Origin: Candidatus Beckwithbacteria bacterium
GTDB lineage: Bacteria > Patescibacteriota > Microgenomatia > UBA1400 > UBA1449
Assembly (NCBI GenBank): GCA_012797845.1
Contig: JAAZOH010000004.1
Span: 1,658-65,657, forward strand
Length of the DNA: 64,000 nucleotides
Direction: 5' to 3'
Shown: piece after piece, positions 14,272-63,758 of the stretch
Position numbering within the stretch: the first letter of the stretch is position 1
How the letters are laid out: each line of letters begins with the position of its first letter
The notes under the pieces: generated by a model
Seen by the model: the letters and a program-made list of their open reading frames with translations, nothing else
What the model was told of the DNA's origin: nothing
Databases searched by the model: none
Program-made: the position numbers and the translations under genes

Positions 14272-14338
14272 GTGTCATTTCAATTGGAGCAGAAAAATCT
14301 TACAAAAAGATCTTTCAACTTTTGTTTAAGATGACAAC
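14272..14338. repeat. Palindromic repeat family, copy H0 (degenerate).
   Basis: GTGTCATTTCAATTGGAGCAGAAAAATCT-tacaaaa-AGATCTTTCAACTTTTGTTTAAGATGACAAC. It shares the outer GTGTCAT/ATGACA(A)C and inner AGATCTTTC words with copies at 46.2-46.8 kb, 57.9 kb and 63.7 kb. It ends 5 nt before the ATG at 14344. Confidence 0.6.
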
Positions 14339-14343
14339 TACTA

Positions 14344-15126
14344 ATGGCTACTTTTCTTCACTTGATTACTGATTATGGTACTGGTGATCCAGCCTTTGCC
14401 GAAGTTGAGCAACGTTTACTTAGTCTTAATCCTGATTTTTATCTTATTAAAACCTCGGTACCATCTTTTAACACCATTGCTACTGGTTTTTGGATCAATC
14501 AATTTGCTTTAGGTGATCATCCACAAAATATGATGATCTATTCCAATACGGCTCCAAGGAAAGATGATACTAAAAAACGTAAAGAAAATGCTGGGGAACA
14601 TTTTATTTATGCTCAGCTTAAGAATGGTATGGAAATATGTGCGGTCAATGCTGGCTACTGTTTTTCCTTTATTAAACCCCATATTAAAAGTTTACATGCA
14701 CTTAATGTAGCCAATCATGGTTCACAGTTTCGGTCTCGGGATTTTTACCCAGAAGCTGTAGCGGCAATTGCTAAAGGCGATACCAAACTGATTGGTCACA
14801 AAATGGATATTGCAAACATTCCGAACGAACCTAAAAACCGGATTGCTTGGGTGGATGGCTATGGCAACATCAAAACAACTATCCGTAAATCTCAGGTTAC
14901 TTTTAAAGAAGGGGCTAAAGTCCAGATTATTGTCGATGGCGTAGTTCGGACAGCTTTGGTAACTGGGGGTATTTTCTCAGTAGCTGAGGGAGAACTGGCT
15001 TTTTCTCAAGGCAGTTCTGGTCACGACGATCCTTTTATGGAGATTTTCCTGCGAGGTGGCAATACCTACCGCCATTTCAATAAACCCAGTGTACACGCTG
15101 AAATTGAATTGCGGGAAATTCAATAA
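14344..15126 (+). CDS. SAM hydroxide adenosyltransferase-like protein (DUF62, fluorinase/chlorinase-related family).
   Basis: N-terminal LITDYGTGDP (family hallmark TDFG). C-terminal WVDGYGNIKT and LAFSQGSSG...EIFLRGGN match the conserved DUF62 C-terminal barrel motifs. Confidence 0.6.
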   Translation: MATFLHLITDYGTGDPAFAEVEQRLLSLNPDFYLIKTSVPSFNTIATGFWINQFALGDHPQNMMIYSNTAPRKDDTKKRKENAGEHFIYAQLKNGMEICAVNAGYCFSFIKPHIKSLHALNVANHGSQFRSRDFYPEAVAAIAKGDTKLIGHKMDIANIPNEPKNRIAWVDGYGNIKTTIRKSQVTFKEGAKVQIIVDGVVRTALVTGGIFSVAEGELAFSQGSSGHDDPFMEIFLRGGNTYRHFNKPSVHAEIELREIQ

Positions 15127-15127
15127 A

Positions 15128-16507
15128 CTATTGGTGAACAGCAATAACTTTTATTTTGCAAAATTCTTGCATCCCAATTTTGCCATACTCTTTACCCATA
15201 CCACTTTGTTTAAAACCACCAAAAGGACACTCTGGTTTGAAAAAATCATCAGTATTAATGGCCACTGTACCGGCTTCAAGCTGAGCAGCCACTCGCTCAG
15301 CTTTAAGCAAATCTTTAGTATAAACCTCAGCGCTTAGGCCATATTCAGTTTGATTAGCCAATTTAATTACTTCTTCTTCGGTTGAAAAAGGAATGATGGG
15401 CAAAACTGGTCCAAAAACCTCCTCGGTCATCAATCTCATAGTAGGTTTAATCTTACTTACAATAGTTGGCTCAAAATAATTACCTTTGGCAATTTTTTGA
15501 TCTTTTGGCTGCTTTCCCCCGGTTACAATTTTGGCGCCTTTTTTATTGGCGTCGGCCAATTGATCTTTTAAAAGTTGCAGTTGTTTGATAGAAACAAGCG
15601 GGCCAATATCAGTTTTTTTATCTAGAGGATTGCCAATCTGAACAGTCTGTAATTTTTTGACAAATAAATTTACCACTTGAGGATAAATTGATTTTTCAAC
15701 GAAAAGACGTTTGATGGCAGTGCATACTTGACCACAATTTAAATAGCGAGCCCAATATAAATTATCCATAGCGTGATCTAAATCGGCATCAGCAAAAATA
15801 ATAGCCGGACTACTACCGCCCAGTTCCAGTAAAGCTTTGATAAATTTTTTACCAGCTTTTTCATAAATTTGCCGGCCTACTTTTGTACTACCCGTAAACC
15901 AAACCAGATCAATATCAGCATCAACTAAAGCTTGACCAACTGTACCATCACCAATTAAAAGATTAGCTACTCCTTCAGGTAAACCACTTTGATTGAGTAA
16001 ATCAACATTTAATTTTTGAGTTAGGCTCGTATATTCAGAAGGCTTAATGATAGTAGTATTGCCAGCAAGCAGAGCCGGAATTAAACCCGAGTTAACCATG
16101 GAAATAGGAAAATTCCAGGGAGCGATGCAAGCACAAACTCCATACGGTTCAAAAACCATTCTGAAATGATCCGGACCTTTTTTATAAACAGTCTCGTCAG
16201 CCAGAGCTTTAGGAGCAGTTGTAGTATAGTAGTCAAGGAATTCTAGTTCCCAAGTAACATCATCACGTGATTGTTGTATGGGTTTACCCATTTCCAGAGT
16301 TGTCAGCTTGGCAATTTTTTCTACGTTTTTTTCTAAAATTTTTCGGTATTTTTTGATATAACTAATTCGTTTTTCTAAAGGAACTTGTTGCCAAGTTTGA
16401 AAAGCCGCTTTAGCTTTTTTAATGGTTTTGTTAATTTCTATTTGTGATGAAAAAGGCAAACTGCCAACAACTGATTGATCATGAGGATTGATAGATTTTA
16501 AGATCAT
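15128..16507 (-). CDS. NAD(P)-dependent aldehyde dehydrogenase.
   Basis: FEPYGVCACIAPWNFP, the LELGGSSP glutamate region and the catalytic Cys in YLNCGQVCTA. Start set at the internal ATG (MILKSINP), which has a strong RBS AGGAAAGGA and lies 1 nt after the upstream gene's stop. The ORF-track TTG at 16552 is less likely. Confidence 0.8.
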   Translation of the reverse strand: MILKSINPHDQSVVGSLPFSSQIEINKTIKKAKAAFQTWQQVPLEKRISYIKKYRKILEKNVEKIAKLTTLEMGKPIQQSRDDVTWELEFLDYYTTTAPKALADETVYKKGPDHFRMVFEPYGVCACIAPWNFPISMVNSGLIPALLAGNTTIIKPSEYTSLTQKLNVDLLNQSGLPEGVANLLIGDGTVGQALVDADIDLVWFTGSTKVGRQIYEKAGKKFIKALLELGGSSPAIIFADADLDHAMDNLYWARYLNCGQVCTAIKRLFVEKSIYPQVVNLFVKKLQTVQIGNPLDKKTDIGPLVSIKQLQLLKDQLADANKKGAKIVTGGKQPKDQKIAKGNYFEPTIVSKIKPTMRLMTEEVFGPVLPIIPFSTEEEVIKLANQTEYGLSAEVYTKDLLKAERVAAQLEAGTVAINTDDFFKPECPFGGFKQSGMGKEYGKIGMQEFCKIKVIAVHQ

Positions 16508-16508
16508 A

Positions 16509-16829
16509 TTATTTATCCTTTCCTTTATTACGATAGATAAAAATTTGGCCAATAATAATGGCAGTGGTAATAATTCCTAAACCCTGTCCAAGAACAAGAA
16601 CTACATCTTTTTGTAAAATGCCGTGAATAGTCCACAAACAATAGGCAACAAAAGAAAGAATCATGAAGGTACTAGATAAACCTTTGGTGGATTTGCGATG
16701 GTAGTTTTTTCTGATTTGGTCTGGGAGACCAATGATTTTAACGAGAATTCCAATTATTAAAGTTAAAAAGCCTATTATTCCGGCAAAAGTTATTGATTGT
16801 AACAAAACCATACTTTCATTGTATACCAT
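16509..16829 (-). CDS. Small 3-TM membrane protein (PQ-loop/SemiSWEET-like or LAB_N-like).
   Basis: 106 aa with three hydrophobic helices and a basic C-terminal tail. Translationally coupled to the aldehyde dehydrogenase. Confidence 0.45.
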   Translation of the reverse strand: MVYNESMVLLQSITFAGIIGFLTLIIGILVKIIGLPDQIRKNYHRKSTKGLSSTFMILSFVAYCLWTIHGILQKDVVLVLGQGLGIITTAIIIGQIFIYRNKGKDK

Positions 16830-17005
16830 TGCTGTTTATTAGACTTATTACAAAATGAGCAAATATACCCAAACTTGTCTTTTTGTCAATTTTCGTCGTC
16901 ACTCAACACCTCAGGTACGGTTAGTACCATCAGTATTGAGTTCCTTGAAAATTGGCCAAAAATCCTACGTTTTGCTAACATTTTTTATTTTGCAATAAGT
17001 CTAAC

Positions 17006-17365
17006 TTACTTACCAAACCAGCCAGTGATTTTATCAGCCCACTTACTGGCCCATTCTTCAGCTTTAATGTAGGTGAGAGCTAGGGTAAAACCAGGCCGTT
17101 TTTCTTCAATAGCTTTTTGAACACTAGCAATAGTGGCTGAAGAAACTTTAACTTCTTTTTTGATGTCTTCGTAAGATTTACCTTTATTAAGATAAATGAT
17201 AATAGCCAAGCGTTTTGCTAAAGCAATATGCTCGGTTTCGGTTAAGAAATCATTTAAAAAAGTTTGAGCCTTATCTTTTTTAGTAATATCAGCAATGAGT
17301 TGAGCGAAAATTTCTTTGAGTTGACTTTCAAATTTTGGATCAAGCTGACGTTTGCTTATTTGCAT
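17006..17365 (-). CDS. TrpR-like / YerC-YecD family DNA-binding protein.
   Basis: 119 aa. The central helix-turn-helix-like region (TEHIALAKRLAIIIYLNKGKSYEDIKKEVKVSSATIASV) is typical of the Trp-repressor-related YerC family. Confidence 0.6.
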   Translation of the reverse strand: MQISKRQLDPKFESQLKEIFAQLIADITKKDKAQTFLNDFLTETEHIALAKRLAIIIYLNKGKSYEDIKKEVKVSSATIASVQKAIEEKRPGFTLALTYIKAEEWASKWADKITGWFGK

Positions 17366-17789
17366 GTTCTGGGTCCGGAACAGGAGGACTTTGATTATTT
17401 AAATTCTTGCTTTGTAGCTTAACATTAGTTTCTGAAGCTGTAAAGAAATAAATCAAAGCAATTACTAGTCCGACGATAAATAGGGGGTTTATCCAATCTC
17501 GAAAACCAAACAAGCGAAGAACTAAAATAGCAACTAGCCCCAAAGAAGGTAATAGTAAAAAAACCATTTTAGATATAAAAATATTAATAGTTAAACTCAG
17601 AGAAGCAACCAGTAATATAAAAAAAGGAGCATAGTAATAATCAACCCAGGTTTTTGGCTCCACAAAAAGGACTACGTAACCAAAAATCAACCAAGCAGCA
17701 ATAGCTAAAATTAATTTAGTAATGAGGGATTTCTTCGAGCTGGTGCGGTACTTAGTTTTTTTTCGAGGCATTACGTCTATTGTACACAA
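17340..17789 (-). CDS. Hypothetical membrane protein.
   Basis: Basic N-terminus followed by 4 TM helices. Its 3' end overlaps the start of the YerC-like gene. Confidence 0.4.
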   Translation of the reverse strand: MCTIDVMPRKKTKYRTSSKKSLITKLILAIAAWLIFGYVVLFVEPKTWVDYYYAPFFILLVASLSLTINIFISKMVFLLLPSLGLVAILVLRLFGFRDWINPLFIVGLVIALIYFFTASETNVKLQSKNLNNQSPPVPDPEHANKQTSA

Positions 17790-17822
17790 GAATTAGTAAT
17801 TTGGTGGTAGAATGGTTAGGCT

Positions 17823-18806
17823 ATGGTGAGTACTGAATTTATCATTTTTGCTGCTCTAATTATTCTTTTACTAGTAGCCTTTTTATTTATTATTTTGTCT
17901 CAAATAAAAAAGCTGCAAAAAAGTACTTCATCTGATCAAACGCTCATTCAATGGTTGCAATCCATGCAACAGTCTCTTAATCAAAATAATAAAAATATTA
18001 ACGACACTTTGGCCCAAACTACAGCTACCATTAATCGGCGTTTAGATAATACGATTGGTGTCATGACCGAAGCGTCTAGAGAAGTAGCGCGAATGAATGA
18101 GCTAGGCCAATCAATTAAAGATTTACAACTATTACTCCAATCACCTAAATTGCGAGGTGGTATTGGTGAGGAAGTGCTGGCTGATATGCTGGCTCAAATT
18201 TTCCCCAAAGGCAGTTTTTTTCTCCAGCACGGCTTTAAATCTGGAGCCAAAGTGGATGCAGCTATCAAAACTACGGCCGGTCTCTTATGCATTGATGCCA
18301 AATTTCCCATGGAAAATTTCCAAAAAAAGGTCAAAGCTGATACTGCTAAAGAGCGGGAGCAATTTGGTAAATTATTTACAGCCGATGTCAAAAAACATGT
18401 CAAAGATATTGCCAGTAAATATATTTTGGCAGATGAAGGGACAGTAGATTTTGCTTTTATGTATGTGCCCTCAGAAACTATTTTTTACGAAATTGCTAAT
18501 ACACCGGAAATTTTAGACTTTGCCAAAAGAAACCGGGTTTATCCGGTTTCGCCCAATACCCTATATTTGCATTTACAAACTATTTTACTGTCATTTGAGG
18601 GCCAGAAAATTGAAGCCAGGGCTAAGCAAATTATGAGCCTGCTTAAAACTTTGCAAACTGATTATGGCAAGCTTGATGATAATTTGCAGATTTTAGGTAA
18701 GCACTTAAATAACGCTTCCAACCAATACGTCAATACTTCGCAACAATTTGGGCGTTTGGGTCAAAAGCTCAATCAGAGTGAATTACTGGAGGGTGGAGAA
18801 AAATAA
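17823..18806 (+). CDS. rmuC: DNA recombination protein RmuC.
   Basis: N-terminal TM, a long coiled coil, and the conserved C-terminal RmuC region (FAFMYVPSE...NRVYPVSPNTLY). Confidence 0.8.
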   Translation: MVSTEFIIFAALIILLLVAFLFIILSQIKKLQKSTSSDQTLIQWLQSMQQSLNQNNKNINDTLAQTTATINRRLDNTIGVMTEASREVARMNELGQSIKDLQLLLQSPKLRGGIGEEVLADMLAQIFPKGSFFLQHGFKSGAKVDAAIKTTAGLLCIDAKFPMENFQKKVKADTAKEREQFGKLFTADVKKHVKDIASKYILADEGTVDFAFMYVPSETIFYEIANTPEILDFAKRNRVYPVSPNTLYLHLQTILLSFEGQKIEARAKQIMSLLKTLQTDYGKLDDNLQILGKHLNNASNQYVNTSQQFGRLGQKLNQSELLEGGEK

Positions 18807-18808
18807 TT

Positions 18809-19171
18809 ATGAAAACAGTATTTTTATGCACGCCTCATAAATTAGGTCAACTTAATTTTGACTTGATTAAACGAATTGAAAAATTAGGCTTTAAAGTTTT
18901 ATGTGCTGTAACTCATAGTCCACAAAATGTTAGTTATCAACAAATGTTTCAGACTAACGTTAATCTCATCAAGCAAGCTGATATTTTTGTAGTGGTTTTG
19001 AAAGATTATGGTAAAGATCTGACGGCTGAAGTAGGAATGGCTTATGCCTGGCAAATCCCCAGTATAGGAATTGATTACAATGCTGATAAAACTGATGTAA
19101 TGAGCTATTATGCCTTGGATGAAATCATTAAACTAGAAGATTTAGAAAAGACTTTAGAAAAATATCGATAG
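18809..19171 (+). CDS. Nucleoside 2-deoxyribosyltransferase-like protein.
   Basis: 120 aa Rossmann-like. ADIFVVVLKDYGKDLTAEVGMAYA matches the NDT-family pattern (early Asp, then the acidic EVG-x-AYA segment). The start overlaps the rmuC stop. Confidence 0.5.
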   Translation: MKTVFLCTPHKLGQLNFDLIKRIEKLGFKVLCAVTHSPQNVSYQQMFQTNVNLIKQADIFVVVLKDYGKDLTAEVGMAYAWQIPSIGIDYNADKTDVMSYYALDEIIKLEDLEKTLEKYR

Positions 19172-19212
19172 CATGTCATTCTGAACTTGTTTCGGAATCC
19201 CAGTATTTAGAA

Positions 19213-19686
19213 ATGAATTATTGGAAAATTCCACCAAAAATAAAAATCTATGAAGCCATAGGCTGCATTGCTGATAAGAGAATTAAAATAACACAAGATA
19301 AAAAATCAGCTATAGTCAAGTCTTCTAGTGGCAATAAAAAATACCAAGTGTTTTACAAAAAAGAGAAACAGGAAATTCTGGCGAATGACAATGGATCATA
19401 TTGGCAAGGCTATCTAGGTTATCCAGCAATTGCTTTTTTGATAGAAATTGGCAAAATTGAGTATGACCAGAGCGTTAATAAATTTCTTAATAATTTAGCT
19501 TGGAAAGATATAAATGTTAAGTTTAAAAATGATTATCATAAAACTATTAGGTATGTTTTGACAAAAAATACCAATGAGGAAGATAAAGAAAAGCTTATTA
19601 ATGAGATTAATGGAATTTATAACCAGCTTAAGAATTTAAAACTTAAGAAACTTGAGAAAAATATTAAACCGCCAGTTGGTTACTAA
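19213..19686 (+). CDS. Hypothetical protein (AT-rich, Lys-rich).
   Basis: 157 aa ORF with no recognisable motifs. Its stop lies 1 nt before the helicase-nuclease ATG. Confidence 0.4.
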   Translation: MNYWKIPPKIKIYEAIGCIADKRIKITQDKKSAIVKSSSGNKKYQVFYKKEKQEILANDNGSYWQGYLGYPAIAFLIEIGKIEYDQSVNKFLNNLAWKDINVKFKNDYHKTIRYVLTKNTNEEDKEKLINEINGIYNQLKNLKLKKLEKNIKPPVGY

Positions 19687-19687
19687 T

Positions 19688-23665: not shown

Positions 23666-24544
23666 TCAACTAGCGCTGAAACCAAGCTTAAACTTGGTAA
23701 ATCCCTTCCAACCAGAATTGAGTTTGGGAAAGCGCTCATCCCATAAACCTTCAAAGTCAAAGATTTTCATCTTGCGTTTTTTGCTTTCCAAAATTGCTTG
23801 CCAAATACATAAAGTTGGAGCAAAAAGTTGATGGCTTTTTAGAGTTGAAGCGTTGTGCCAATAGAAAGCCATATTAGGAGTAGTTAGGATAAGACAAGTG
23901 GCCAACAGGTTATTAGTAATAGATTCTTCGCTACGCTCAGAATGACACTTTTGAGAAATAAAGACAAAAAAACATTTCCCTCCAAAAGATCTGACTAAGT
24001 TTTCTAGCTCTGAAAATTTAGGTTTAAACAGCCAGTTGTGCGGTTTATTTTTTGACCACAGTTGATAGAAATTTTGCAATTGTTCTTTGCTTGTTTTATC
24101 TCCAGAAATAATTGAAACTACTAATTTTTGTTGAGCCTTGCGTAAGTTATAACGGGTTTTAGCTTTTAAGTTTGCCAATAAATAGTTTTCAGATTTAGTT
24201 ACGTCAAGCCATAGGGTTTTAGTAGGTAAAACTGGCCAAGAATTATTTTTATCTTTAGTAAAATAAATCTGATCTTTTTTTTGTTTAGCAATAATAAAAG
24301 GTTCTTGCTTAAAAATTACAACTCTATGTTTTCTTTTGATTTGCTTAACCATTTTGGGGTCGAGTGATTTTTTAGCGCGCAAAATTTTAACCAAACCAAA
24401 AGGAGTTAAGGGAATAGTGCGGTAAGAATAAAAAACTGTGTCTTTATCTTGTCTTAAAACACCTTGTTGCCAGCCAAGGGTTTGCATAAATTGGTTGAAC
24501 TGCGATGTTTGACGGACATCAATAAGATTAGTATTTGAAAACAT
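23666..24544 (-). CDS. FemAB-family peptidoglycan interpeptide-bridge aminoacyltransferase (paralog 2).
   Basis: The KAKTRYNLRKAQQK motif and overall FemABX/GNAT-tandem organisation. Confidence 0.7.
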   Translation of the reverse strand: MFSNTNLIDVRQTSQFNQFMQTLGWQQGVLRQDKDTVFYSYRTIPLTPFGLVKILRAKKSLDPKMVKQIKRKHRVVIFKQEPFIIAKQKKDQIYFTKDKNNSWPVLPTKTLWLDVTKSENYLLANLKAKTRYNLRKAQQKLVVSIISGDKTSKEQLQNFYQLWSKNKPHNWLFKPKFSELENLVRSFGGKCFFVFISQKCHSERSEESITNNLLATCLILTTPNMAFYWHNASTLKSHQLFAPTLCIWQAILESKKRKMKIFDFEGLWDERFPKLNSGWKGFTKFKLGFSAS

Positions 24545-25585
24545 TTACAATGGGAGGGCGGCTTTTAACTTAAGCAATTTCCAACGGGCTTTATCAGCTA
24601 TTTGATAAACCTGGTATTTAGGCTGATCAATCACATAATCAAATGTGCCCATAAATTCCATCAAAGTTGGGCCATAGCCTTGCTTGAATTTATGAAAACC
24701 CATCCAGGGATCTTTTGGATCAGGGTCAGGACCAAGGCTACCCCACATGTCAAAAATCTGGCAGCCAGCTTGCTTACCATAGCGTATAGCTTCCCACATC
24801 ATTAGATTGCTAGCCATCACTTCGCGGTCAGCAGAGCTAGAAGCGCCATATGGATAATACAAAATTTGATTAAAGGTAAATAAAATCCAAGTAACTAAAG
24901 TATTGCCTTGGTGAGTTGCTTTAAGAAGGTGAGCAATCCCAGCTGGTTTTAAGACTGACCACATTTGGCGGTGATACTTTTCGTTGTGAGCATAAAAGCG
25001 TTGCCGTTTGGTGGTTTCCTCAAAAGTTAATTTGAGATAATCTTCAAATGCCGATTCACTATTATCTTCGCTAATTTCCACCCCTTTGCGTTGAGCCAGT
25101 CCCACATTGTAGCGGGTTTTTTGCTTCATATTTGCCAGAAGTTCTTGCTCTGAAAGCCTAAGATTAGCCATGAAACTGTATTTAGTAAACATCGGCTTAC
25201 CAAAGACACAGCTATGCTCTTTAAGATATGTTTTGGCTTCAGCCAACTTTTCCTTATTATCAGTTTCAGCTATTTGATATACATTGGGTTCAAGTTTAAT
25301 AAAGATTGCATTTTTAGCTTTGCCCAGATCTTTCAAAGCAGCCAGAACTTCTTCACTAGGTAAAACTGATTTTGGCAAATAACCAATAGTAAAAGGAAAT
25401 TTAGGTACAGGATGAAAGGTGATAGTAAAACCATTGACAATTTTGCTGCCATTAAATTCACCAAGACGAACTACATCAATACCAGTTTTGGCACGAAACT
25501 CGCCCCATTCCCAAGACTGAAGCGGATGGGCCACCGCCTGGTTATAGCTATCTTTTTCTTCTGGTCGTACTTCTCGAACTAACAT
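24545..25585 (-). CDS. FemAB-family peptidoglycan interpeptide-bridge aminoacyltransferase (paralog 1).
   Basis: SWEWGEF, KQKTRYNVGLAQRKGV and a C-terminal GNAT-like half. It is directly adjacent to the second paralog. Confidence 0.75.
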   Translation of the reverse strand: MLVREVRPEEKDSYNQAVAHPLQSWEWGEFRAKTGIDVVRLGEFNGSKIVNGFTITFHPVPKFPFTIGYLPKSVLPSEEVLAALKDLGKAKNAIFIKLEPNVYQIAETDNKEKLAEAKTYLKEHSCVFGKPMFTKYSFMANLRLSEQELLANMKQKTRYNVGLAQRKGVEISEDNSESAFEDYLKLTFEETTKRQRFYAHNEKYHRQMWSVLKPAGIAHLLKATHQGNTLVTWILFTFNQILYYPYGASSSADREVMASNLMMWEAIRYGKQAGCQIFDMWGSLGPDPDPKDPWMGFHKFKQGYGPTLMEFMGTFDYVIDQPKYQVYQIADKARWKLLKLKAALPL

Positions 25586-25673
25586 AATGATAAAATGGAT
25601 TTATTGATGTTACCTTGATCTACCAGCTGTCGGATCGAAATGACAAGGTTAAGTATTTTTATTATAACGCACC

Positions 25674-46238: not shown

Positions 46239-46311
46239 GTGTCATGTTGAGCAAAGCGAAACATCTTAAAGTTGCAAAAAGATCCTTTGAGCTTTGCTCT
46301 CAGGATGACAC
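46239..46311. repeat. Palindromic repeat family, copy H1 (hairpin).
   Basis: GTGTCATGTTGAGCAAAGCGAAACATCT-taaagttgcaaaa-AGATCCTTTGAGCTTTGCTCTCAGGATGACAC. The arms are mutually complementary. Confidence 0.7.
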
Positions 46312-46337
46312 CATAGAGTATAGATAGAATTTGAAAT

Positions 46338-46700
46338 GTGTCATTCTGAGTGAAGCGAAGAATCTTTGCTATGTTAACAAAAGAATATTTTGTTTATATT
46401 TTAACCAATTATACCAATACGACTTTATATATAGGTGTCACAGATAATCTTAAAAGAAGAATATATGAACATAAAAATGATTTAGTAGAAGGATTTTCAA
46501 AAAATATAAACTACATAAATTAGTCTATTTTGAAACGTTTAATGATATTACAATAGCAATACAAAGAGAAAGATATTTAAAAGGCAAAACGAGAAATTTT
46601 AAAGATACTTTGATTCAAAAAACAAATCCGAAATTTGAAGATTTATTTAATAAACTAGATTAAAGATCCTTCTCTTGCTAAGATGGGACCAGGATGACAC
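46338..46700 (+). mobile_element. Palindromic repeat copy H2 carrying a GIY-YIG nuclease gene in its loop (candidate autonomous element).
   Basis: Left arm GTGTCATTCTGAGTGAAGCGAAGAATCTTTGCT ends at the ORF ATG. The right arm AGATCCTTCTCTTGCTAAGATGGGACCAGGATGACAC starts right after the ORF stop. The inner and outer inverted-repeat words are the same as in the short hairpin copies. Confidence 0.6.
46371..46663 (+). pseudogene. YhbQ/UPF0213-type GIY-YIG nuclease gene, disrupted by a -1 frameshift in an A6 tract.
   Basis: Frame 1 reads MLTKEYFVYILTNYTNTTLYIGVTDNLKRRIYEHKNDLVEGFSKNINYIN*. This carries GIY-YIG motifs (YFVYIL, LYIGVT) and the conserved Arg and Glu-His. The offset frame continues KLVYFETFNDITIAIQRERYLKGKTRNFKDTLIQ... 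to 46663. One extra A in the run at 46499-46504 would restore GFSKKYKLHKLVYFE, which matches the family consensus. Confidence 0.65.
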
Positions 46701-46729
46701 TAACTATAAGAATGGTTAAAGTGCAGACT

Positions 46730-46802
46730 GTGTCATTCTGAGCAAAGCGAAGAATCTAATGATTTAAAAAAGATCTTTCGGGCGTTGCCCTCAAGATGAC
46801 AC
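46730..46802. repeat. Palindromic repeat family, copy H3 (hairpin).
   Basis: GTGTCATTCTGAGCAAAGCGAAGAATCT-aatgatttaaaaa-AGATCTTTCGGGCGTTGCCCTCAAGATGACAC. It ends 10 nt before the gltX ATG, and the RBS AAGGAAA abuts its right end. Confidence 0.7.
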
Positions 46803-54579: not shown

Positions 54580-54606
54580 AAATCAAGCTATAATAGTGAA
54601 ATATCT

Positions 54607-55506: not shown

Positions 55507-55546
55507 TTTTTCGAATCAGATTAAACCTGATATTATTGAAATAAAT

Positions 55547-56242
55547 ATGAAATTGGCATTATTACTACCAGGATATTTAGATTCTCCAGATTATCTTCAT
55601 ATGCTGACTTTTGAAAAAAGGCTTAAAGAGTTAGGCTATGCTGTAGAGCGGCTTGACCCCTGCAATCTTTGGAAAACCGGAGACATTTCTAATTATTCAA
55701 TAACAAATTTGCTTAAACAAATTAAAGAAAGAATTACTTTTTATAAGTCTCAACAGCCAACAGAAATTATTTTGATAGGTCATAGTATGGGTGGTTTTAC
55801 AGCAATAATTGCTGGAAATAGAATAAAAGAAATCACTAAAATAGTTACTCTTTGTCCGCCGCCAAACAGATATGGTTCAAAATCAGAATGGGAAAAAAAC
55901 GGTGGGTTTAGATGTTCGGAAAGAGATTTACCAAATGATCCTCAAAAGGTTAGAACATTCAATGTTCCATATTCATTTGCCAAGGATGGTTTGCAATATT
56001 CTGCATCCAAAGAAGTTAAGATGATAAACAAACCCTTAATGATATTTATTGCCCTAGAAGATACGGTTGTTCCCCCAAGCCAAACGGAAGAAATTGTGGC
56101 CAATGCCCAAAATCCATATGTGGTGAGGCAAGAAAATATGGGGCACGATTTTAGGTATTCTCAAAAAGAATGTGATTTGGTGATGAAAGAAATTGAAAAG
56201 TTCTTAATTAAATCAAGTGAAATGCAAGTACTGCCCAAATAA
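55547..56242 (+). CDS. Alpha/beta-hydrolase fold protein.
   Basis: Nucleophile elbow GHSMGG and downstream Asp/His candidates (EDTVVPP, GHDF). Confidence 0.6.
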   Translation: MKLALLLPGYLDSPDYLHMLTFEKRLKELGYAVERLDPCNLWKTGDISNYSITNLLKQIKERITFYKSQQPTEIILIGHSMGGFTAIIAGNRIKEITKIVTLCPPPNRYGSKSEWEKNGGFRCSERDLPNDPQKVRTFNVPYSFAKDGLQYSASKEVKMINKPLMIFIALEDTVVPPSQTEEIVANAQNPYVVRQENMGHDFRYSQKECDLVMKEIEKFLIKSSEMQVLPK

Positions 56243-56558
56243 ATGGAGTTAACATAAATAATCCTAAAATAATATATAAAACACCTAAAAATTTAGCTGA
56301 AGAACCATAATATGATTCTGATTCTCTAGGAAATATTCTTGGATAAATAAAAGGCGAGAACGATCCATGAAGAATAGATTTAATAATAGTTATTTTTTTT
56401 GAATAAGCATAGTTGCCTTCGTCATCACGCCAAATAACTGTTTGTTCTGCAATGATTGATTTTATGCCATATATTAAAACTAATAGAGATATAAACCCAT
56501 AAACAAACACAATTATTTTTGCTAAACCAGACATTAGTTCAATAGACGTTTCCATCAT
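56208..56558 (-). CDS. Small membrane protein.
   Basis: Start set at the internal Met (MMETSIEL), 4 nt after the upstream stop. 3 TM segments. Confidence 0.35.
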   Translation of the reverse strand: MMETSIELMSGLAKIIVFVYGFISLLVLIYGIKSIIAEQTVIWRDDEGNYAYSKKITIIKSILHGSFSPFIYPRIFPRESESYYGSSAKFLGVLYIILGLFMLTPFIWAVLAFHLI

Positions 56559-56562
56559 AATT

Positions 56563-57777: not shown

Positions 57778-57866
57778 GCTAATACTGTAACATTTTTGAG
57801 TGTTTTAACCTACGATTTCTGATCTAAAAGTAATACAATTAGTAGTTAATCAAAATTTTAAAATAC

Positions 57867-57945
57867 GTGTCATTCTGATCCCGCCTTGGCGGGGGAAGAA
57901 TCTTTCTTATACTAATTAGATCTTTCGTTTCACTCAGGATGACAC
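57867..57945. repeat. Palindromic repeat family, copy H4.
   Basis: GTGTCATTCTGA-TCCCGCCTTGGCGGGGG-AAGAATCTTTC-ttatactaatt-AGATCTTTCGTTTCACTCAGGATGACAC. It has an extra GC mini-hairpin in the left arm. It sits in the divergent intergenic region, 31 nt before the ATG at 57976. Confidence 0.7.
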
Positions 57946-57975
57946 TAATAATTTAAAAGATTAAAATGGCGTTTT

Positions 57976-58836
57976 ATGGACTTACTTAAAAACAAACTTT
58001 TTACGGTTTTTAGTTTTTCTTTTTTCTGGGCAGTTTGCATTATTGCTAATAAAGCTATTCTCAATCAGGGCGGACATCCTTTTATTGTCCCAACACAAAT
58101 TTATCTGATAGGATTTCTGTTTTTACTGGCTCTGAGCCATAAAAAATTATCCGGTTTTGCCAAACTATCTACTAAACAGCGCTTCTACTTGCTTTTGACC
58201 GGACTAACTATTGCGGGTTCAGTTATTTTAGGTAGCTATGGTCTCAAACTATCCAGCTCAATCAATTACGGTTTTTTAATAAAAAGCACTATTATCTTTG
58301 CCACTTTGATTGGCGCCTTCTTTTTCCAAGAAAAACTTACTAAAGTTAAACTAGGATTACTGCTACTATTTTTATTGGGTCTATATATTTTGACTTCTCA
58401 AGGGGAAATTTTAATTCCTCATCTGGGAGATATTCTTATTTTTCTGGCAGCTTTGTTGGCAGCTATCAGTGCGGCTTTGCAAAAACCGGTTTTAAAAGTT
58501 GGGTTGAGCCCATTGCTGCTTGCTTTATCAAGAGTGGCCATTGCCGGCTTGTGTTTTTTACTAGCTGCACCGTTTGTTTCACAAACATTTTATATTCCTA
58601 AAGGAGGTATCTTGCTTTTGTTAGCTGGTTTTTCCTATGGTATTTACAGCTATTTTTTAAGTAAAACTTTACAGCTAGCTACACTTTCCTATATGACGAT
58701 GATGTCAATGTTAACGCCAGTCATTGTCAGTATTTTAGCTTTTGGGTTTTTGGGCGAGACTATTACTGCCTATCACTTATTTGGTGGGGGACTGATTATT
58801 CTTTCGGGAATAGGGGTGCAGAAATTTAAACTATAG
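57976..58836 (+). CDS. EamA/DMT-superfamily transporter.
   Basis: 10-TM topology in two halves, with a Gly-rich C-terminus. Confidence 0.6.
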   Translation: MDLLKNKLFTVFSFSFFWAVCIIANKAILNQGGHPFIVPTQIYLIGFLFLLALSHKKLSGFAKLSTKQRFYLLLTGLTIAGSVILGSYGLKLSSSINYGFLIKSTIIFATLIGAFFFQEKLTKVKLGLLLLFLLGLYILTSQGEILIPHLGDILIFLAALLAAISAALQKPVLKVGLSPLLLALSRVAIAGLCFLLAAPFVSQTFYIPKGGILLLLAGFSYGIYSYFLSKTLQLATLSYMTMMSMLTPVIVSILAFGFLGETITAYHLFGGGLIILSGIGVQKFKL

Positions 58837-58853
58837 ATTTTTTAAATACCCAA

Positions 58854-59231
58854 TTACTTATTAAAAGTCAGTTTTTTATTGGCTAGCTCAACCAAGTCTT
58901 CAAGATCAATATTGGCTTTGACAATATAATCACTGGCTCCTAAACTCATAGCCCGGTCAATTTCATTCATTTGACCAAAATTACTTAACATTACTACGGT
59001 AATCTGTTGGTATTTTGGATCAGCTTTTAATGTCTTTAAAATTTCATAGCCATCGATACCTGGTAGCATAATGTCTAAAAAGATCAAATCAATATGATTA
59101 TTTTTCAAAACTTCTTCAGCTTCAGTCCATTCTTTAGACCAGAAAGTCTTAAAACTTGCTTCGGTCAAAGCATTTTGAATAGCTTTGCCAAGCAACTTAT
59201 CATCTTCGATAATTAGCAAACTGTAACCCAT
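58854..59231 (-). CDS. Single-domain response regulator (CheY-like receiver).
   Basis: LLIIEDD, the phospho-acceptor context DLIFLDIMLPGIDG, and the conserved T/K (VVMLSN...KA). Confidence 0.8.
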   Translation of the reverse strand: MGYSLLIIEDDKLLGKAIQNALTEASFKTFWSKEWTEAEEVLKNNHIDLIFLDIMLPGIDGYEILKTLKADPKYQQITVVMLSNFGQMNEIDRAMSLGASDYIVKANIDLEDLVELANKKLTFNK

Positions 59232-59243
59232 ATAGTCCTCCGT

Positions 59244-59612
59244 TTATTTATTAAGCATTTGTTGAACAATTCTCAGTATATCATCAAGATTATAATTAGC
59301 TTTAATTAAATACTGATTTGCTCCCAGTTGTTTAGCTTTATTCAAATCAGCATCATTATCCTTATTGGTCAAAATAAAAACTGGAACATGTTGGCTCTGC
59401 TCCTTACCCTTAATTTTAGCCAAAACTTCTAAGCCACCGATTCCTGGCAAATCTAAATCCAAAAGAATAAGATCGTACTGATTTTGAGACAGCATCCATA
59501 AGCCTTGTTCACCTTCAAAAGCCAAGTCAACATGATACTGTGCCTCAGTTAGTCTTGTTACTAATATTTGGCTCAATTGTTCATCGTCTTCAATAAGTAA
59601 AATATTAGCCAT
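59244..59612 (-). CDS. Single-domain response regulator (CheY-like receiver).
   Basis: ILLIEDDEQL, DLILLDLDLPGIGG, and PVFILTNK...K motifs. Confidence 0.8.
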   Translation of the reverse strand: MANILLIEDDEQLSQILVTRLTEAQYHVDLAFEGEQGLWMLSQNQYDLILLDLDLPGIGGLEVLAKIKGKEQSQHVPVFILTNKDNDADLNKAKQLGANQYLIKANYNLDDILRIVQQMLNK

Positions 59613-59613
59613 G

Positions 59614-60609
59614 TTATCGGATAAATTCGTTGGTAAACACAGTATTAATATCCACTGATTTCTTCATTAAACCTTGTTTAACCAAAACATCCTGCATTTT
59701 TTGCCAGACCACTGGATCCATCCAACCCAATTTACTATCACCGGTATTAATGAGAGGAATACTAATTTCGATAGCTTTGAGTTGAAAGTCTTTATCTAAT
59801 TCTGAATTAAACTGCAGGGTTGCCTCAACTGCCTTTTGTGGACTTTCAATAGCTTCTTGCCAGCCTTCTAGGCTATCTTTGACAAAAGTAGCAACTATGT
59901 CTGGGTGTTTTTGGATATAGCTATCGGTAGTAAAAATAACATCAGCATAAAACGGCACACCATAATCATTTGGCCAGATAGCAGTAGTAGCAACTCCATC
60001 ATTTTCAGCTCGAGCAAGTCCATTAGTAGCGTAGTCTGGACAAATATCAGCTGTTTCCCAACATTTATATAGATCCCAATCAGTCATAGGGATTTCTTTA
60101 ATTTTAGTCCGATCAATACCAATCTGACCAAGCATGCTTTCATATAGGTATGTTCCTTGACCTGGAGATAAAGCAATTGTTTTTCCAACAAAATCATAAG
60201 GGCTATTAATGTTGGAACCACTTTTTGTAAGGTAGATAAGTGGAGCAATTTTAAAAATAACGGCCACAGCCTTAACTGGTTGGCCTTCACTTCGGGCAAT
60301 AAGTACCTCATCAGCTGAGCCAATAGCAATGTCATCTTCACCAGTTATCAAATAGTCGGTAGTAATCTGGCGGTCAAGGTCTATAGACTTGATTGTCACA
60401 TCTAAGCCATCTTGTTGATAAAAACCCTCCTGATTAGCTATATAAAAACCCGCAAATTGACCTTGGTGAGTCCATTTCAAACGGAATGACAAAGGAATTA
60501 AATCAGTTGGCTGAGGCTTGGATTTTAGGTACTGCTTTCCTAATATAAACCCACTAGCTCCAATGAATAATACAATTAGAGAAATAATAATGAATATAAA
60601 TTTTTTCAT
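59614..60609 (-). CDS. NMT1/THI5-like (SsuA/TauA-type) periplasmic substrate-binding protein.
   Basis: Signal/TM anchor then RLKWTHQGQFAGFYIANQEGFY and a two-lobe SBP fold. It is located between the sensor kinase and the two receivers. Confidence 0.6.
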   Translation of the reverse strand: MKKFIFIIISLIVLFIGASGFILGKQYLKSKPQPTDLIPLSFRLKWTHQGQFAGFYIANQEGFYQQDGLDVTIKSIDLDRQITTDYLITGEDDIAIGSADEVLIARSEGQPVKAVAVIFKIAPLIYLTKSGSNINSPYDFVGKTIALSPGQGTYLYESMLGQIGIDRTKIKEIPMTDWDLYKCWETADICPDYATNGLARAENDGVATTAIWPNDYGVPFYADVIFTTDSYIQKHPDIVATFVKDSLEGWQEAIESPQKAVEATLQFNSELDKDFQLKAIEISIPLINTGDSKLGWMDPVVWQKMQDVLVKQGLMKKSVDINTVFTNEFIR

Positions 60610-60629
60610 GCTGCTTGGATCTTTGCTTT

Positions 60630-62837
60630 TTAACTTAAAGTTACTTCTCCTTTTTGAGCCTTACTGCCTTTAATTGATAAACCAAAGGTAAACGTAGTGC
60701 CTTTCCCCTCAGTGCTGGTAAAGGCAATTTTCCCATTAGAAACTTCAGCAATTTTTTTGACCATATATAACCCTAATCCAGTCCCAGTATTTTCAGTTTT
60801 GATAATATTTTCGGCTCGGAAAAATTTTTCAAAAATACGTTTTTGGCTCTCAAGTGGAATTCCATAACCACTATCTTCAATTTGGAACACAATATAGTTT
60901 TGCTGTTGGTTAAGGCTTATCTTAATGTTGCCTTTATTAGGAGTATATTTAATGGCATTGTTAATTAAGTTAAGAAATACTTGACGAATCAAAATAGGAT
61001 CAATTTTTATTTGAGGTAAGTTATCAGCAACTTCGATCGTTATTATCTGGGATTTTTCAGTAATTTTCATTTCCAGTTCTTTAAGAATTTTCTGTAATAA
61101 AGTAGCTAAATCAGTGGGGACAGGATCAACTATAAGTCTGCCTGATTCTATACGGCTGATATTTAATAAGCCATTCACCAGTTCAATTAAAAGCTTAGTA
61201 GATTGGTAAATATTTTCTGTATACTCAGTTTGAGTTTTATTAAGCTTGCTTTTTTTATTTTTGAGCAATGTTTCGCTATACCATCTAATAGCAGTCAATG
61301 GAGTTCGTAGTTGATGAGATGCTAAAGAGATAAAATCGTCTTTCATTTTTTCAACCGCTCGTTCTTGGCTTACATCTCTAAACACCACCACACAGCCGGT
61401 GATTTCCCCGTCTTTATTTTTTAAAGGAGCAGCGCTATCAGCTACCGAAACTCTGGTTTCGTCTTTTCTAATCAAAGAAGTGTGATTGGCCATTTCAGTG
61501 GCCTTACCAGTTTCATAAACATCATCAATAAATTGTTTATTTTCCCGGCCGGTTTTTTCAAAAATAAATTTTAAATGAGTATCATATACCGTTCCTATCA
61601 ATTCATTGGCTTGATGACCTGAAATATCTTGAGTTACCTGATTAACCAGTGTGATCTTTCTATTTTCATCTAGTACAAAGACTCCATCGCCAATGCTTTG
61701 TAAAATAGCGGTGACTTTATCTTTTTCAAGATTGATATCCTGAAAAGCTTTTTGGATTTTTTTCCTGGAAACCCGAAGTCTACTAACCATGTTATTTATT
61801 GATCTAGCTAAATCACCAATTTCATCCTTACTTTTGAATACCGCTTTAGTATCTAAATCGCCAGCTCCTATTTGCTCGGCTACTTTTTCAAGAGTCACTA
61901 AAGGTCTGACTATTCTTCTGATAGCAAAAAAGATAAAAAGACAAGCGCCTAAAACTACTATTGTTGCAATGATTGATATTGAGCGCAAGATAATTCTGGT
62001 ACTGGCTAGAACTTCCTGCTCGTCAATTTCAGTGATCATGCAAGATTCAATTTTATCTAACCAAACATAACTGCCGAGCACTTTATGATCTCGATAGTTA
62101 ATATAGCTGCCACTTCCATTTTGTTTAGAAAGACATTGTTTAGTGGCTTCGGTATGAAGAGTTTTACGCAAAGCATACCCTTTTTCAAAACGAGACTCAG
62201 TAATAAAAAAATTAAATTTATTAACCAAATATGTTTCTTCAGTTTTGTCTAGACCATTATCATTCAACATAATTTCTGACATTTTCTTTAGATCAATTTT
62301 GGAAGCTAAGGTGAAGGTTTGTTCATCTAAATTTATAGGTGTAGAGATAATTAAGACAGGTTGTTGAAGCTCTAGATCATAGGTAAAACCATGAACATAA
62401 ATACCCTTTTGACCTTCATAAAAATAATGTTCATCTTCTCTAACCTTTCCCTCATTATGTGGATTGGTTGAGACATAAATAACTCCTTTAGGGTCAATCA
62501 AAAATAGCTCAGTGAATTTTCCTGATTTACTAAGTACATCATTGAGAGTTTTGCGAATTACTTCTTTTGGAAGTGTGTCTTCAGTTTCTTTTTCTTGTTG
62601 CTTATAAAGTTGAAGATGAAGCTTGATATCTTCGGTAGTTTTGACAATCTCTTCCTTTTCCTCTTCTACGTATTCATAAATCTGATCTTTTTTAAGATTG
62701 CTAATGCCTTGTAATTGTTTGATGGCCTGATCTTTGAGGGAATTAGATAGATATGAAAAAACTACTAAAAAACCAAGCGTGGAATTGATAAGAAGAAAAA
62801 CAATAAGGGGAATAGCGAGTTTGTACGTTAATTTCAT
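60630..62837 (-). CDS. Sensor histidine kinase with an extracytoplasmic Cache-like domain, HAMP, PAS, HisKA and HATPase_c.
   Basis: Two TM helices bracket a roughly 250 aa extracellular domain. HAMP (LEKVAEQIGAGDLDTK...DEIGDLARSINNMV), the PAS region, the H-box SHQLRTPLTAI, and N/G1/F/G2 boxes (NLINNAIKYT, DSGYGIP, GTGLGL). Confidence 0.85.
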   Translation of the reverse strand: MKLTYKLAIPLIVFLLINSTLGFLVVFSYLSNSLKDQAIKQLQGISNLKKDQIYEYVEEEKEEIVKTTEDIKLHLQLYKQQEKETEDTLPKEVIRKTLNDVLSKSGKFTELFLIDPKGVIYVSTNPHNEGKVREDEHYFYEGQKGIYVHGFTYDLELQQPVLIISTPINLDEQTFTLASKIDLKKMSEIMLNDNGLDKTEETYLVNKFNFFITESRFEKGYALRKTLHTEATKQCLSKQNGSGSYINYRDHKVLGSYVWLDKIESCMITEIDEQEVLASTRIILRSISIIATIVVLGACLFIFFAIRRIVRPLVTLEKVAEQIGAGDLDTKAVFKSKDEIGDLARSINNMVSRLRVSRKKIQKAFQDINLEKDKVTAILQSIGDGVFVLDENRKITLVNQVTQDISGHQANELIGTVYDTHLKFIFEKTGRENKQFIDDVYETGKATEMANHTSLIRKDETRVSVADSAAPLKNKDGEITGCVVVFRDVSQERAVEKMKDDFISLASHQLRTPLTAIRWYSETLLKNKKSKLNKTQTEYTENIYQSTKLLIELVNGLLNISRIESGRLIVDPVPTDLATLLQKILKELEMKITEKSQIITIEVADNLPQIKIDPILIRQVFLNLINNAIKYTPNKGNIKISLNQQQNYIVFQIEDSGYGIPLESQKRIFEKFFRAENIIKTENTGTGLGLYMVKKIAEVSNGKIAFTSTEGKGTTFTFGLSIKGSKAQKGEVTLS

Positions 62838-62985
62838 TTCTGATAAATTTTACCTATATATAAACTATACTTTAATTAGAAAAAGATGTGCAAGAAGTTT
62901 ATGTTTTAGACATTTCTCAACTATTTCTCAATATTTTTTATATAATATAATTTGATTTGTTGTTTAAAGTATTTTTAAGATTTTT

Positions 62986-63660
62986 ATGAAACTACTAGTC
63001 ATTGAAGATGAGCAACGTATTGCCACTTACATCAAAAAGGGCTTGGAAATGAAGTCTTATGTAGTTGACGTGGCTTATGATGGTGAAGAAGGGTATGACT
63101 TTGCTATTGGTGAAGCTTATGACCTTATTATTTTGGATCGAATGCTACCTAAAATGGACGGCCTGACTCTTTGTAAAAAATTACGAGCCGAAAAGATTCA
63201 TACTCCGGTTTTGATGCTAACTGCTAAAACTGAAGTTAATGACCGAGTAGAAGGTTTGGATGCCGGAGCTGATGATTATTTAGGCAAACCCTTTGCCTTT
63301 GTTGAATTATTGGCTCGAATCAGAGCCTTAACTCGTCGGCCTAAAAAGCAAGATGCAGAAGTTTTGCAAGCTCAGGATTTGACGCTCAATACTGTAAGCT
63401 ATGAAGTTAAAAGAGGCGAGAAAACTATTGAACTTTCTAAAAAAGAATTTGCTCTGCTGGAATTTTTATTGCGAAACAAAGGTCAGGTTTTTGATAAAGA
63501 CAAATTGGTTGAACAAGTGTGGAGCTATGATAGTGATGTGCTAGCTAATACTGCTCAAGTTTATATTGGCTATTTACGGGATAAAATTGATAAAGCCTTT
63601 CCTCAAAAACCAGAAATTATCAAGACAGTCAGAGGTTTTGGCTATAAAATAGATAATTAG
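62986..63660 (+). CDS. OmpR/PhoB-family response regulator.
   Basis: Receiver (LLVIEDEQ, DLIILDRMLPKMDG, LMLTAKT) plus a winged-helix C-terminal domain (VYIGYLRDKID...RGFGYKI). Confidence 0.9.
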   Translation: MKLLVIEDEQRIATYIKKGLEMKSYVVDVAYDGEEGYDFAIGEAYDLIILDRMLPKMDGLTLCKKLRAEKIHTPVLMLTAKTEVNDRVEGLDAGADDYLGKPFAFVELLARIRALTRRPKKQDAEVLQAQDLTLNTVSYEVKRGEKTIELSKKEFALLEFLLRNKGQVFDKDKLVEQVWSYDSDVLANTAQVYIGYLRDKIDKAFPQKPEIIKTVRGFGYKIDN

Positions 63661-63676
63661 TTTACTAATATTATTA

Positions 63677-63758
63677 GTGTCATCCTGAGGAGGGTAGCGA
63701 CGAAGGATCTTAAAATAAGAAAGATTCTTCCCCCGCCAAGGCGGGGTCAGAATGACAC
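63677..63758. repeat. Palindromic repeat family, copy H5 (inverted relative to H4).
   Basis: GTGTCATCCTGAGGAGGGTAGCGACGAAGGATCT-taaaataagaa-AGATTCTTCCCCCGCCAAGGCGGGGTCAGAATGACAC. Its right arm is the reverse complement of the H4 left arm, including the GC mini-hairpin. It ends 16 nt before the ATG at 63774. Confidence 0.7.

Follow-up and report, generated by a model that had tools for sequence, protein, structure and literature searches.

A stretch of 64,000 nucleotides from Candidatus Beckwithbacteria, a bacterium of the Candidate Phyla Radiation (CPR), carries a dispersed family of imperfect palindromes of 70–80 bp, one of which is extended by a gene for a small nuclease. This whole stretch of DNA is referred to herein as the window. 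An earlier note, made from its sequence, reported six copies of the palindrome, and all six are present where it placed them. Each palindrome is composed of two hairpin units of ∼30 nt arranged back to back, and each unit begins with a short tag containing GTC that faces outward. Two additional single units (23920–23948 and 19173–19201) bring the window tally to six dimers and two single units. The features are listed below by coordinates, strand and description; dimers, whose units lie on opposite strands, are given without a strand.

14272–14338, no strand: degenerate back-to-back dimer; units at 14272–14301 (+) and 14307–14338 (−)
19173–19201, plus strand: single unit of a second subtype, ATGTC-ATTCTGAA-CTTGT-TTCGGAAT-CCCA; included in the training set of the covariance model described below
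23920–23948, minus strand: single unit, GTGTCATTCTGAGCGTAGCGAAGAATCTA, in frame within the FemAB-like open reading frame (ORF) 23666–24544 (−)
46239–46311, no strand: dimer; units at 46239–46267 (+, ATGTT/AACAT) and 46279–46311 (−, ATCCT/AGGAT)
46338–46700, plus strand: full cassette of unit, nuclease gene and unit; units at 46338–46366 (+) and 46663–46700 (−)
46371–46663, plus strand: frameshifted gene for a GIY-YIG nuclease of the Ssn family (PF01541); two reading-frame pieces, 97 amino acids once repaired
46730–46802, no strand: dimer; units at 46730–46758 (+, ATTCT/AGAAT) and 46770–46802 (−, ATCTT/AAGAT, inner helix GGGC/GCCC)
57867–57945, no strand: dimer; units at 57867–57904 (+, GC-rich inner hairpin CCCGCC-TT-GGCGGG) and 57917–57945 (−)
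63677–63758, no strand: dimer; units at 63677–63711 (+) and 63721–63758 (−)

The claim that these palindromes form a dispersed family holds up when their numbers are compared with dinucleotide-preserving shuffles of the window. The sequence GTGTCAT occurs 13 times, whereas 4.5 occurrences are expected and none of 100 shuffles reaches 13. Twelve of the 13 occurrences are element ends, and the remaining one, at 18058, lies outside the elements. A scan for GTC followed by a 5-bp perfect closing helix starting with AT and then by C finds 11 units, compared to an expectation of 0.66 and no more than 3 in any of 100 shuffles. The 11 units all fall in the reported elements or in the new copy at 23920–23948. 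A search with the full 13-mer recovers a further exact end in this new copy (23936–23948, minus strand); this end is unpartnered and falls within an ORF. Finally, at E ≤ 0.024, a covariance model built from 57 aligned units identifies 13 units in the window, and the training set did not include seven of them; the minus-strand unit at 46279–46311 was found de novo by the model (E = 0.0024). Beyond these 13 units and the decayed left arm of the 14272 copy, the model search of the window revealed nothing further that is convincing. No copies are present in the 9.7 kb to the right of the window.

Similarities of this kind could in principle arise by chance among low-complexity, AT-rich words, or could reflect ordinary intrinsic terminators. 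The window is indeed AT-rich (∼37% GC), and shuffled sequence folds as well as some of the single units do. However, the counts exceed those of the shuffles by a wide margin, and exact window-type units are found in at least 120 metagenome contigs and in eight viral contigs. Moreover, a scan of the region from 44 to 64 kb found 13 terminator-like sites, none of them at an element, and the units do not carry a T-run. These results refute the explanation, to which we assign essentially no probability.

Reading inward from its outer end, each arm carries GTGTC, a 5-base segment, GA, an inner stem–loop, a second GA, the complement of the 5-base segment, and CTT or CTA. The 5-base segments and their exact complements are ATTCT/AGAAT, ATCCT/AGGAT, ATCTT/AAGAT, and ATGTT/AACAT, and the inner stem–loops are GC-AAA-GC, GAGC-AAA-GCTC, GGGC-AAC-GCCC, or CCCGCC-TT-GGCGGG. 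The stem of a window-type unit is composed of 5 bp, a tandem G·A mismatch (G·A/A·G), and another 2–6 bp, and is closed by a loop that is mostly 3–4 nt in length. TGTCAT is present in 12 of the 13 window-type units, and a C immediately follows the closing helix in all 13.

The earlier note had proposed that the two arms of a copy carry compensatory changes and that a hairpin is maintained by selection or by copying. The compensatory changes are real, but they occur within each arm rather than between arms. In each of the six window dimers, the closing helix of one arm differs from that of the other; each is self-complementary within its arm, and the two mismatch from arm to arm. Because these mismatches between arms fall at positions that are complementary within an arm, the changes belong to the units and not to the long palindrome. 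Likewise, a hairpin is maintained, given the wide occurrence of copies elsewhere and the strong covariation described below, but the structure that is kept is the small hairpin of each unit. A rule that dimers prefer unlike arms was considered and rejected, as 29% of 86 dimers found elsewhere are homodimers, compared to 34% under random pairing.

Covariation among units from other sources favors the same structure. In 98 distinct metagenome units for which one stem position was free to be either pyrimidine and its partner either purine, we observed T-A 49 times, C-G 48 times, C·A once, and T·G never (Fisher test, 4e-27). Since both positions are located in the same arm and are unconstrained by pairing between arms, this correlation supports the unit hairpin. 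In the alignment of 57 short units, 91.7% of the cells are paired, compared to 66% when the sequences are shuffled and 19–48% when the partners are slid, and the covariation score is 0.64 compared to 0.18 and 0.03–0.19 for the same two controls. Three inner pairs of this alignment were not imposed by the way in which the units were collected. One of them (13–21) is represented by GC in 21 units, CG in 17, AU in 15, UA in three, and UG in one, with no mismatch; at the other two, window-type units have G·A/A·G where classical units have Watson–Crick pairs. Where one locus carries unlike arms (loci L014, L023, L025, L060, and L078), the differences are compensated inside each arm. Covariation therefore supports a hairpin inside each unit and not pairing from arm to arm. 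The invariant columns of the alignment are the GTC of the tag, the first and last bases of the stem, and the C that follows the stem, which is present in 57 of 57 units. GTC was imposed when most of the 57 units were collected, but the C was not imposed for the 51 units that come from other genomes.

The tie that the earlier note had drawn between the palindromes and a small nuclease gene also stands. In the long copy, a spacer of 4 nt separates the left unit from the start codon of the nuclease gene, whose stop codon directly adjoins the right unit. The gene is split by a −1 frameshift in a run of A residues, where six are present (∼46494–46499) and seven are needed. A Logan assembly made independently from the same run shows the identical frameshift. 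Judging from its reading frames, this copy of the nuclease is probably inactive. The frameshift could be that of a plain pseudogene or a slippage-prone switch.

The repaired protein of 97 amino acids consists of a GIY-YIG domain alone (PF01541, residues 6–76, E = 3e-14). It aligns from end to end with 30 homologs, and residues Y9, Y20, R30, H34, and E67 are invariant among the 31 sequences. A search of NCBIfam with the nuclease yielded nothing above the cut-off, and a sequence search of the PDB yielded no matching solved structure. The spacings between the two Tyr residues and the Glu residue, 11 and 47 residues, are those of Y6, Y17, and E64 in the characterized Neisseria enzyme (Chenal 2025, Nat Commun; PMC11893778). 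This enzyme, SsnA of N. meningitidis, is a single-domain GIY-YIG protein of 94 amino acids whose target hairpin, CGTCATTCCCGCGMAVGCGGGAATCYRG, must be single-stranded DNA to be bound. Cleavage takes place a few nucleotides upstream of this hairpin, duplex DNA and RNA are not substrates, and transformation by motif-bearing DNA is reduced (PMC11893778). Cutting depends most on the three bases that precede the palindrome, and binding on the C that directly follows it (PMC11893778). In our 57-unit alignment, both of these critical positions (the tag and the C that follows the stem) are invariant. The same study, in which homology was defined by a tblastn E value of <1e-10, reports thousands of Ssn homologs, 42% of which are flanked on both sides by Ssn-related motifs (SRMs), and describes a wide range of hairpin partners of 20–50 nt (PMC11893778).

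More than 1197 homologs of the window nuclease, ∼95–97 amino acids in length (range 90–107), were found. The genome loci examined are the best 80 from a scan of one genome per species, and they span most phyla, including Proteobacteria, Bacteroidota, Clostridia, Cyanobacteria, Planctomycetota, Acidobacteriota, Chloroflexota, and several CPR lineages. When the upstream flank is compared with the reverse complement of the downstream flank, most of these 80 loci reveal inverted repeats that start with (T)GTCAT. An architecture scan locates outward-facing units on both sides of the gene in 48 of the best 80 loci and on one side in 22 more, or 70 of 80 in total, and thus the layout of the window cassette recurs in other genomes. 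The units form a continuum, with the uninterrupted form TGTC-ATTCCCGC-GAAG-GCGGGAAT-CCA at one end and the G·A-interrupted type of the window at the other. The latter type also flanks homologs in Syntrophomonadaceae, Tissierella, Cyanobacteriota, Chloroflexota, Zixibacteria, Acidobacteriota, and Gammaproteobacteria. At six loci the flanks are the exact published Neisseria NTS consensus, and the proteins encoded there, which serve as a proxy for SsnA and are not SsnA itself, are 40%–47% identical to the window protein (E = 1e-19 to 3e-28).

Near-full-length homologs are also encoded by 36 viral contigs, 26 of which carry units on both sides of the gene. The cassette may move from host to host on phage or prophage DNA. 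In a number of IMG/VR contigs (L227, L228, L231–L233, L237–L240, L249, and L250), the homologs are flanked by other hairpins of the form GGGTC-CCGC...GCGGG-AT. Flanks of this type suggest that further pairs of enzyme and motif exist.

The placement of the palindromes had suggested either a preference for insertion near translation starts or a role as structured elements of 5′ untranslated regions, which might regulate the translation or stability of downstream genes. Four copies do end 5, 9, 30, and 15 nt ahead of the plus-strand ATGs of the genes at 14344, 46812, 57976, and 63774, respectively, as had been described. In addition, the dimers are stable when folded as RNA (z-scores −2.4 to −5.3), and the left hairpin of the cassette, only 4 nt from the nuclease start codon, could mask the ribosome-binding region. 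However, the four distances carry no statistical weight because only four intergenic regions are involved and the gaps between genes are short.

The contexts of copies elsewhere do not bear out a preference for start codons. We called ORFs crudely in 128 other contigs and considered dimers only, because a relaxed scan for units with one mismatch gave many spurious single matches inside genes. Of the dimers, which belong to the same subfamily as those of the window, 20 lie within called ORFs and 23 at contig edges. Among the 44 that could be classified, 31 are in gaps between genes of the same direction, 10 between convergent genes, and three between divergent genes, proportions that differ little from those of the background gaps (332, 84, and 72, respectively). 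In the same-direction gaps, 14 dimers are nearer the start and 17 are nearer the stop, so no preference for the start side is seen.

Comparison with relatives likewise argues against a role in leaders. The LepA protein of the host is 100% identical to an NCBI protein assigned to Candidatus Beckwithbacteria. Three syntenic Beckwithbacteria relatives, with 70%–75% LepA identity and a common local gene order, carry no units in 52 kb, and the elements are absent upstream of their orthologous genes, including gltX. In one relative (L211), gltX begins 17 nt after dnaJ, without the elements and without the two GNAT genes that flank dnaJ in the window. Furthermore, the dimers at 57867 and 63677 share one arm that is oppositely oriented with respect to the gene downstream, and one unit is located inside an ORF. 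A search of the window with Rfam at the gathering threshold identified only two tRNAs and no other RNA family. The absence of T·G among the 98 metagenome units is also unexpected for a structured RNA, in which G·U would be tolerable, and the characterized Ssn enzyme does not bind RNA (PMC11893778). We therefore consider a function as a regulatory leader very unlikely. The placement data do not fit it, and instead fit a lineage-specific, orientation-indifferent DNA repeat that is selfish or domesticated.

The outward end ATGACA resembles a −35 promoter hexamer, and at three places a −10-like hexamer follows 16–17 nt on, in the flank (57939–57967 on the plus strand, 46694–46722 on the plus strand, and 46344–46317 on the minus strand). 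Promoter-like sites as a whole are not above chance in the scanned region, and this resemblance is only a lead.

Several characteristics of the family are those of mobile DNA. Repeats greatly outnumber nuclease genes, with only two such genes in 128 other repeat-bearing loci, and pairs with tags outward predominate in these loci (67, compared to 14, 19, and 16 in the other three orientations). Presence is lineage-specific, as indicated by the syntenic relatives. Among 86 dimers, no target-site duplication was found at any offset or length, and no conserved flank or insertion motif beyond the tag was found.

Terminal inverted repeats, small size, several copies and an intergenic location are features expected of a miniature inverted-repeat transposable element (MITE) derived from a DDE insertion sequence, and one copy is longer and has an ORF enclosed by the same ends. 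This explanation is highly improbable. The lack of target-site duplications argues against it, and the enclosed ORF encodes a GIY-YIG nuclease rather than a transposase. The annotations of the window's genes include no transposase domain. Selection also acts on the hairpin within each end, and not on identity from end to end.

A parallel can also be drawn with repetitive extragenic palindromic (REP) sequences and their inverted pairs (REPINs), which are served by REP-associated tyrosine transposases (RAYTs) related to those of IS200/IS605 elements. There too, hairpins occur as inverted pairs, a gene is found between two units, and repeats far outnumber genes (PMC3116915). If the window family were of this kind, then the GIY-YIG gene would be a mere passenger. 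Membership in the REPIN/RAYT system was rejected, because the tag is GTC rather than GTAG and no Y1 (HUH) transposase is found among the window's annotated genes. In addition, the unit-flanked gene in 70 of the 80 genomes is a GIY-YIG gene and not a RAYT, and a RAYT with CGTC units at its sides was looked for and not found by Di Nocera 2013, who described the CGTC-tagged REPs (PMC3733652). There is little prospect that RAYTs account for this family.

The best explanation for these findings, in which we have high confidence, is that the palindromes are tags-outward dimers of a small DNA hairpin repeat that belongs to the class of SRMs (NTS-like) or CGTC-tagged REPs. The copy at 46338–46700 would then be a parent-type cassette, with two inverted units around an Ssn-family nuclease that is frameshifted here. 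By analogy with the characterized Ssn enzymes, the window's nuclease, when intact, would act on the GTGTC units. It would bind a unit only as folded single-stranded DNA, as do the enzymes of Neisseria, N. elongata, N. wadsworthii, and Wolbachia, and would read the tag and the C after the stem. A nick made a few nucleotides 5′ of the tag would then fall at the outer edges of the element, on opposite strands. The short dimers would be gene-less copies of the cassette ends, and would relate to the cassette as REPINs do to RAYT. Their spread probably involves a nuclease-dependent process that needs single-stranded DNA and leaves no target-site duplication. Their intergenic location would reflect where insertions are tolerated, and any effects on neighboring genes would be incidental. 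The copies in the window may be relics, or may be served by another copy of the gene located elsewhere in the genome.

A number of observations weigh against this explanation. The published SRM string, HGTCWYN(0-2)YYVSBRHN(0-5)WNVSBRGN(0-2)RNCYNB, has no matches in the window, whose variant units combine a tandem G·A mismatch with a variable inner hairpin and 3-nt loops and end in CTT instead of CCA. The window holds a single nuclease gene, and this one carries a frameshift. Two alleles of the closing helix are common, and part of the pyrimidine–purine correlation could reflect descent from two founder units. Approximately half of the single units fold weakly by nearest-neighbor DNA energies (z-scores +0.9 to −3.4), whereas whole dimers fold well as long hairpins, as noted above for RNA. 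Consequently, the case for the unit hairpin rests on covariation and not on energy. Lastly, mobility is only inferred, because the analysis yielded no presence/absence polymorphism in which the empty site is exact.

A bolder version of the same explanation is that the cassette is an autonomous mobile element, in which the GIY-YIG nuclease mobilizes the whole superfamily of CGTC-type REPs, including dRS3 and the Rickettsia palindromic elements (RPEs), and of which the dimers are non-autonomous, REPIN-like offspring. The lineage-specific presence, the lack of target-site duplications, the excess of repeats over genes, the cassettes on viral contigs, and the in-frame unit all fit this scenario without proving it. 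We view it as tentative and somewhat less likely to be true than false. A resemblance to insertion sequences has been raised for the Ssn system as a hypothesis only (PMC11893778). If the scenario is true, then hairpin repeats and enzymes have entered into a second partnership that is mechanistically independent of REP/RAYT, that is active in reduced CPR genomes, and that inserts in frame into genes.

The individual copies differ in their state and surroundings. The dimer at 14272 is situated in the divergent gap between metG (−) and a gene that resembles SAM hydroxide adenosyltransferase genes (+). The covariance model assigns E = 0.023 to its right unit and E = 1.1 to its left unit, and its weak DNA fold is consistent with a copy that is decaying. 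Three adjacent elements are found between a GNAT gene and gltX; the dimer at 46239 is the first of these, and the dimer at 46730 lies directly ahead of gltX. In this cluster (46239–46802), a dimer, the cassette, and a dimer stand side by side with spacers of 26 and 29 nt that are unrelated in sequence, an arrangement that resembles the mosaic arrays in which REP and dRS3 repeats have been described.

The dimer at 57867 occupies the divergent gap between an NAGPA-like gene (−) and an EamA gene (+), and the closing helix of its unit at 57917–57945 holds one G·T pair. Its plus-strand unit is nearly identical to the minus-strand unit of the dimer at 63677. Since this arm is found on opposite strands, the two dimers represent one subfamily in opposite orientation. 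A Logan contig from run ERR1876141 (L214) breaks at window position ∼63744, in the GC-rich inner hairpin common to these two dimers, as is expected for an independent assembly that encounters a repeat.

The single unit at 19173–19201 has an 8-bp stem that includes one G·T pair and a 5-nt loop. It occupies the 41-nt gap between two ORFs on the same strand (18809–19171 and 19213–19686), and is of the type that flanks nuclease homologs in loci L014, L019, L023, L029, and L055. Two subtypes of unit therefore coexist in this genome, in which the one nuclease gene in view is broken.

The single unit at 23920–23948 encodes the peptide ..CHSERSEESI.. within the FemAB-like ORF. When the product of this ORF is compared to that of its adjoining paralog (24545–25585), an 8-residue gap is located exactly at SERSEESI. 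An in-frame unit of this kind is reminiscent of the Rickettsia palindromic elements that are inserted in frame. Two ENA assembly contigs overlap by ∼127 nt at ∼24411–24537, as inferred from k127 in the contig names and from coordinate arithmetic. This overlap falls within the FemAB-like ORF, beside the paralog, and the longer assembly (85 kb) behind the window joins both contigs. A short sequence farther to the right, TTGTCATTTCGA at 25631–25646 (−), has 12 bases in common with the beginning of units of the ATTTCGA type, by which homologs in loci L070 and L071 are flanked. It has no closing half (model E = 6.9), and may be a decayed unit or a chance match.

Four consequences follow from these findings. 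A false lead is removed, in that the elements are not regulatory leaders of gltX or of other neighboring genes. The Ssn/SRM system is extended to a CPR lineage, with a hairpin variant that the published string misses. Because this variant is missed, censuses based on the string probably undercount the family. The variant could also correspond to a distinct nuclease specificity that is useful for tools directed at single-stranded DNA. Finally, two literatures are linked, one on CGTC-tagged REPs without a transposase and the other on the Ssn nuclease.

The known system closest to the window family is Ssn/SRM. Both have a single-domain GIY-YIG protein of ∼94–97 amino acids with equal Tyr-Tyr-Glu spacing and no extra DNA-binding domain, and in both, inverted hairpin units stand at either side of the gene. 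The repeats share an HGTC tag, a helix that starts with A-T (W-Y), and a C right after the helix, and in both cases they far outnumber the genes and are mostly intergenic. In contrast to published SRMs, the helix of the window units is interrupted by the tandem G·A mismatch, and the inner stem–loop varies in length. The host is a CPR bacterium, a group that is not mentioned in the Ssn paper (PMC11893778). The window gene is also frameshifted, and an activity or a role in transformation can only be proposed by analogy. The published string matches none of the window units, and it also catches both flanks in only nine of the 80 homolog loci, compared to 48 for the architecture scan; it is a search tool rather than a definition.

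A second counterpart is the CGTC-tagged REPs (Di Nocera 2013, BMC Genomics; PMC3733652). These repeats have a tag that is often TGTC, a stem that starts with A-T pairs, and a short tail, and they occur mostly as head-to-head dimers, with some units inside genes (PMC3733652). They are found in five phyla, including dRS3 of Neisseria and RPE-4 and RPE-6 of Rickettsia (PMC3733652). The window family shares the unpaired (C/T)GTC tag, the A-T start of the stem, and the short unpaired tail, as well as the prevalence of head-to-head dimers, the occasional units inside genes, and the occurrence in many phyla. The four families described have uninterrupted stems of 8–9 bp, loops of 4–5 nt, and a CCA tail, and are stated to lack a dedicated transposase, with no associated enzyme reported (PMC3733652). 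Window-type units differ in that they have the interrupted stem of 5 bp, G·A/A·G, and 2–6 bp, loops mostly of 3–4 nt, and a tail of CTT or CTA, and in that they flank a GIY-YIG gene. Only the unit at 19173 fits the classical form in the window. Because of these mismatches in stem, loop, and tail, we file the window family as a structural variant of the CGTC superfamily and not as one of its four families.

The REP/REPIN-RAYT and IS200/IS605 systems offer a more distant parallel. They share with the window family the inverted hairpin pairs, the single small gene between two units, the lack of target-site duplications, and a likely basis in the recognition of folded single-stranded DNA. They differ in their enzyme, which is an HUH tyrosine transposase there and a GIY-YIG nuclease here, and in their tag, which is GTAG there and GTC here. 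We know of no strand-transfer chemistry for Ssn enzymes.

The Ssn paper of 2025 does not cite the study of 2013 (PMC11893778; PMC3733652), and no follow-up papers to the Ssn work were found in the literature searched. Nevertheless, the 2013 work on CGTC-tagged REPs and the 2025 work on the Ssn/SRM system describe the same elements, and the element in the window is a variant-hairpin member of this system that both papers had already described.

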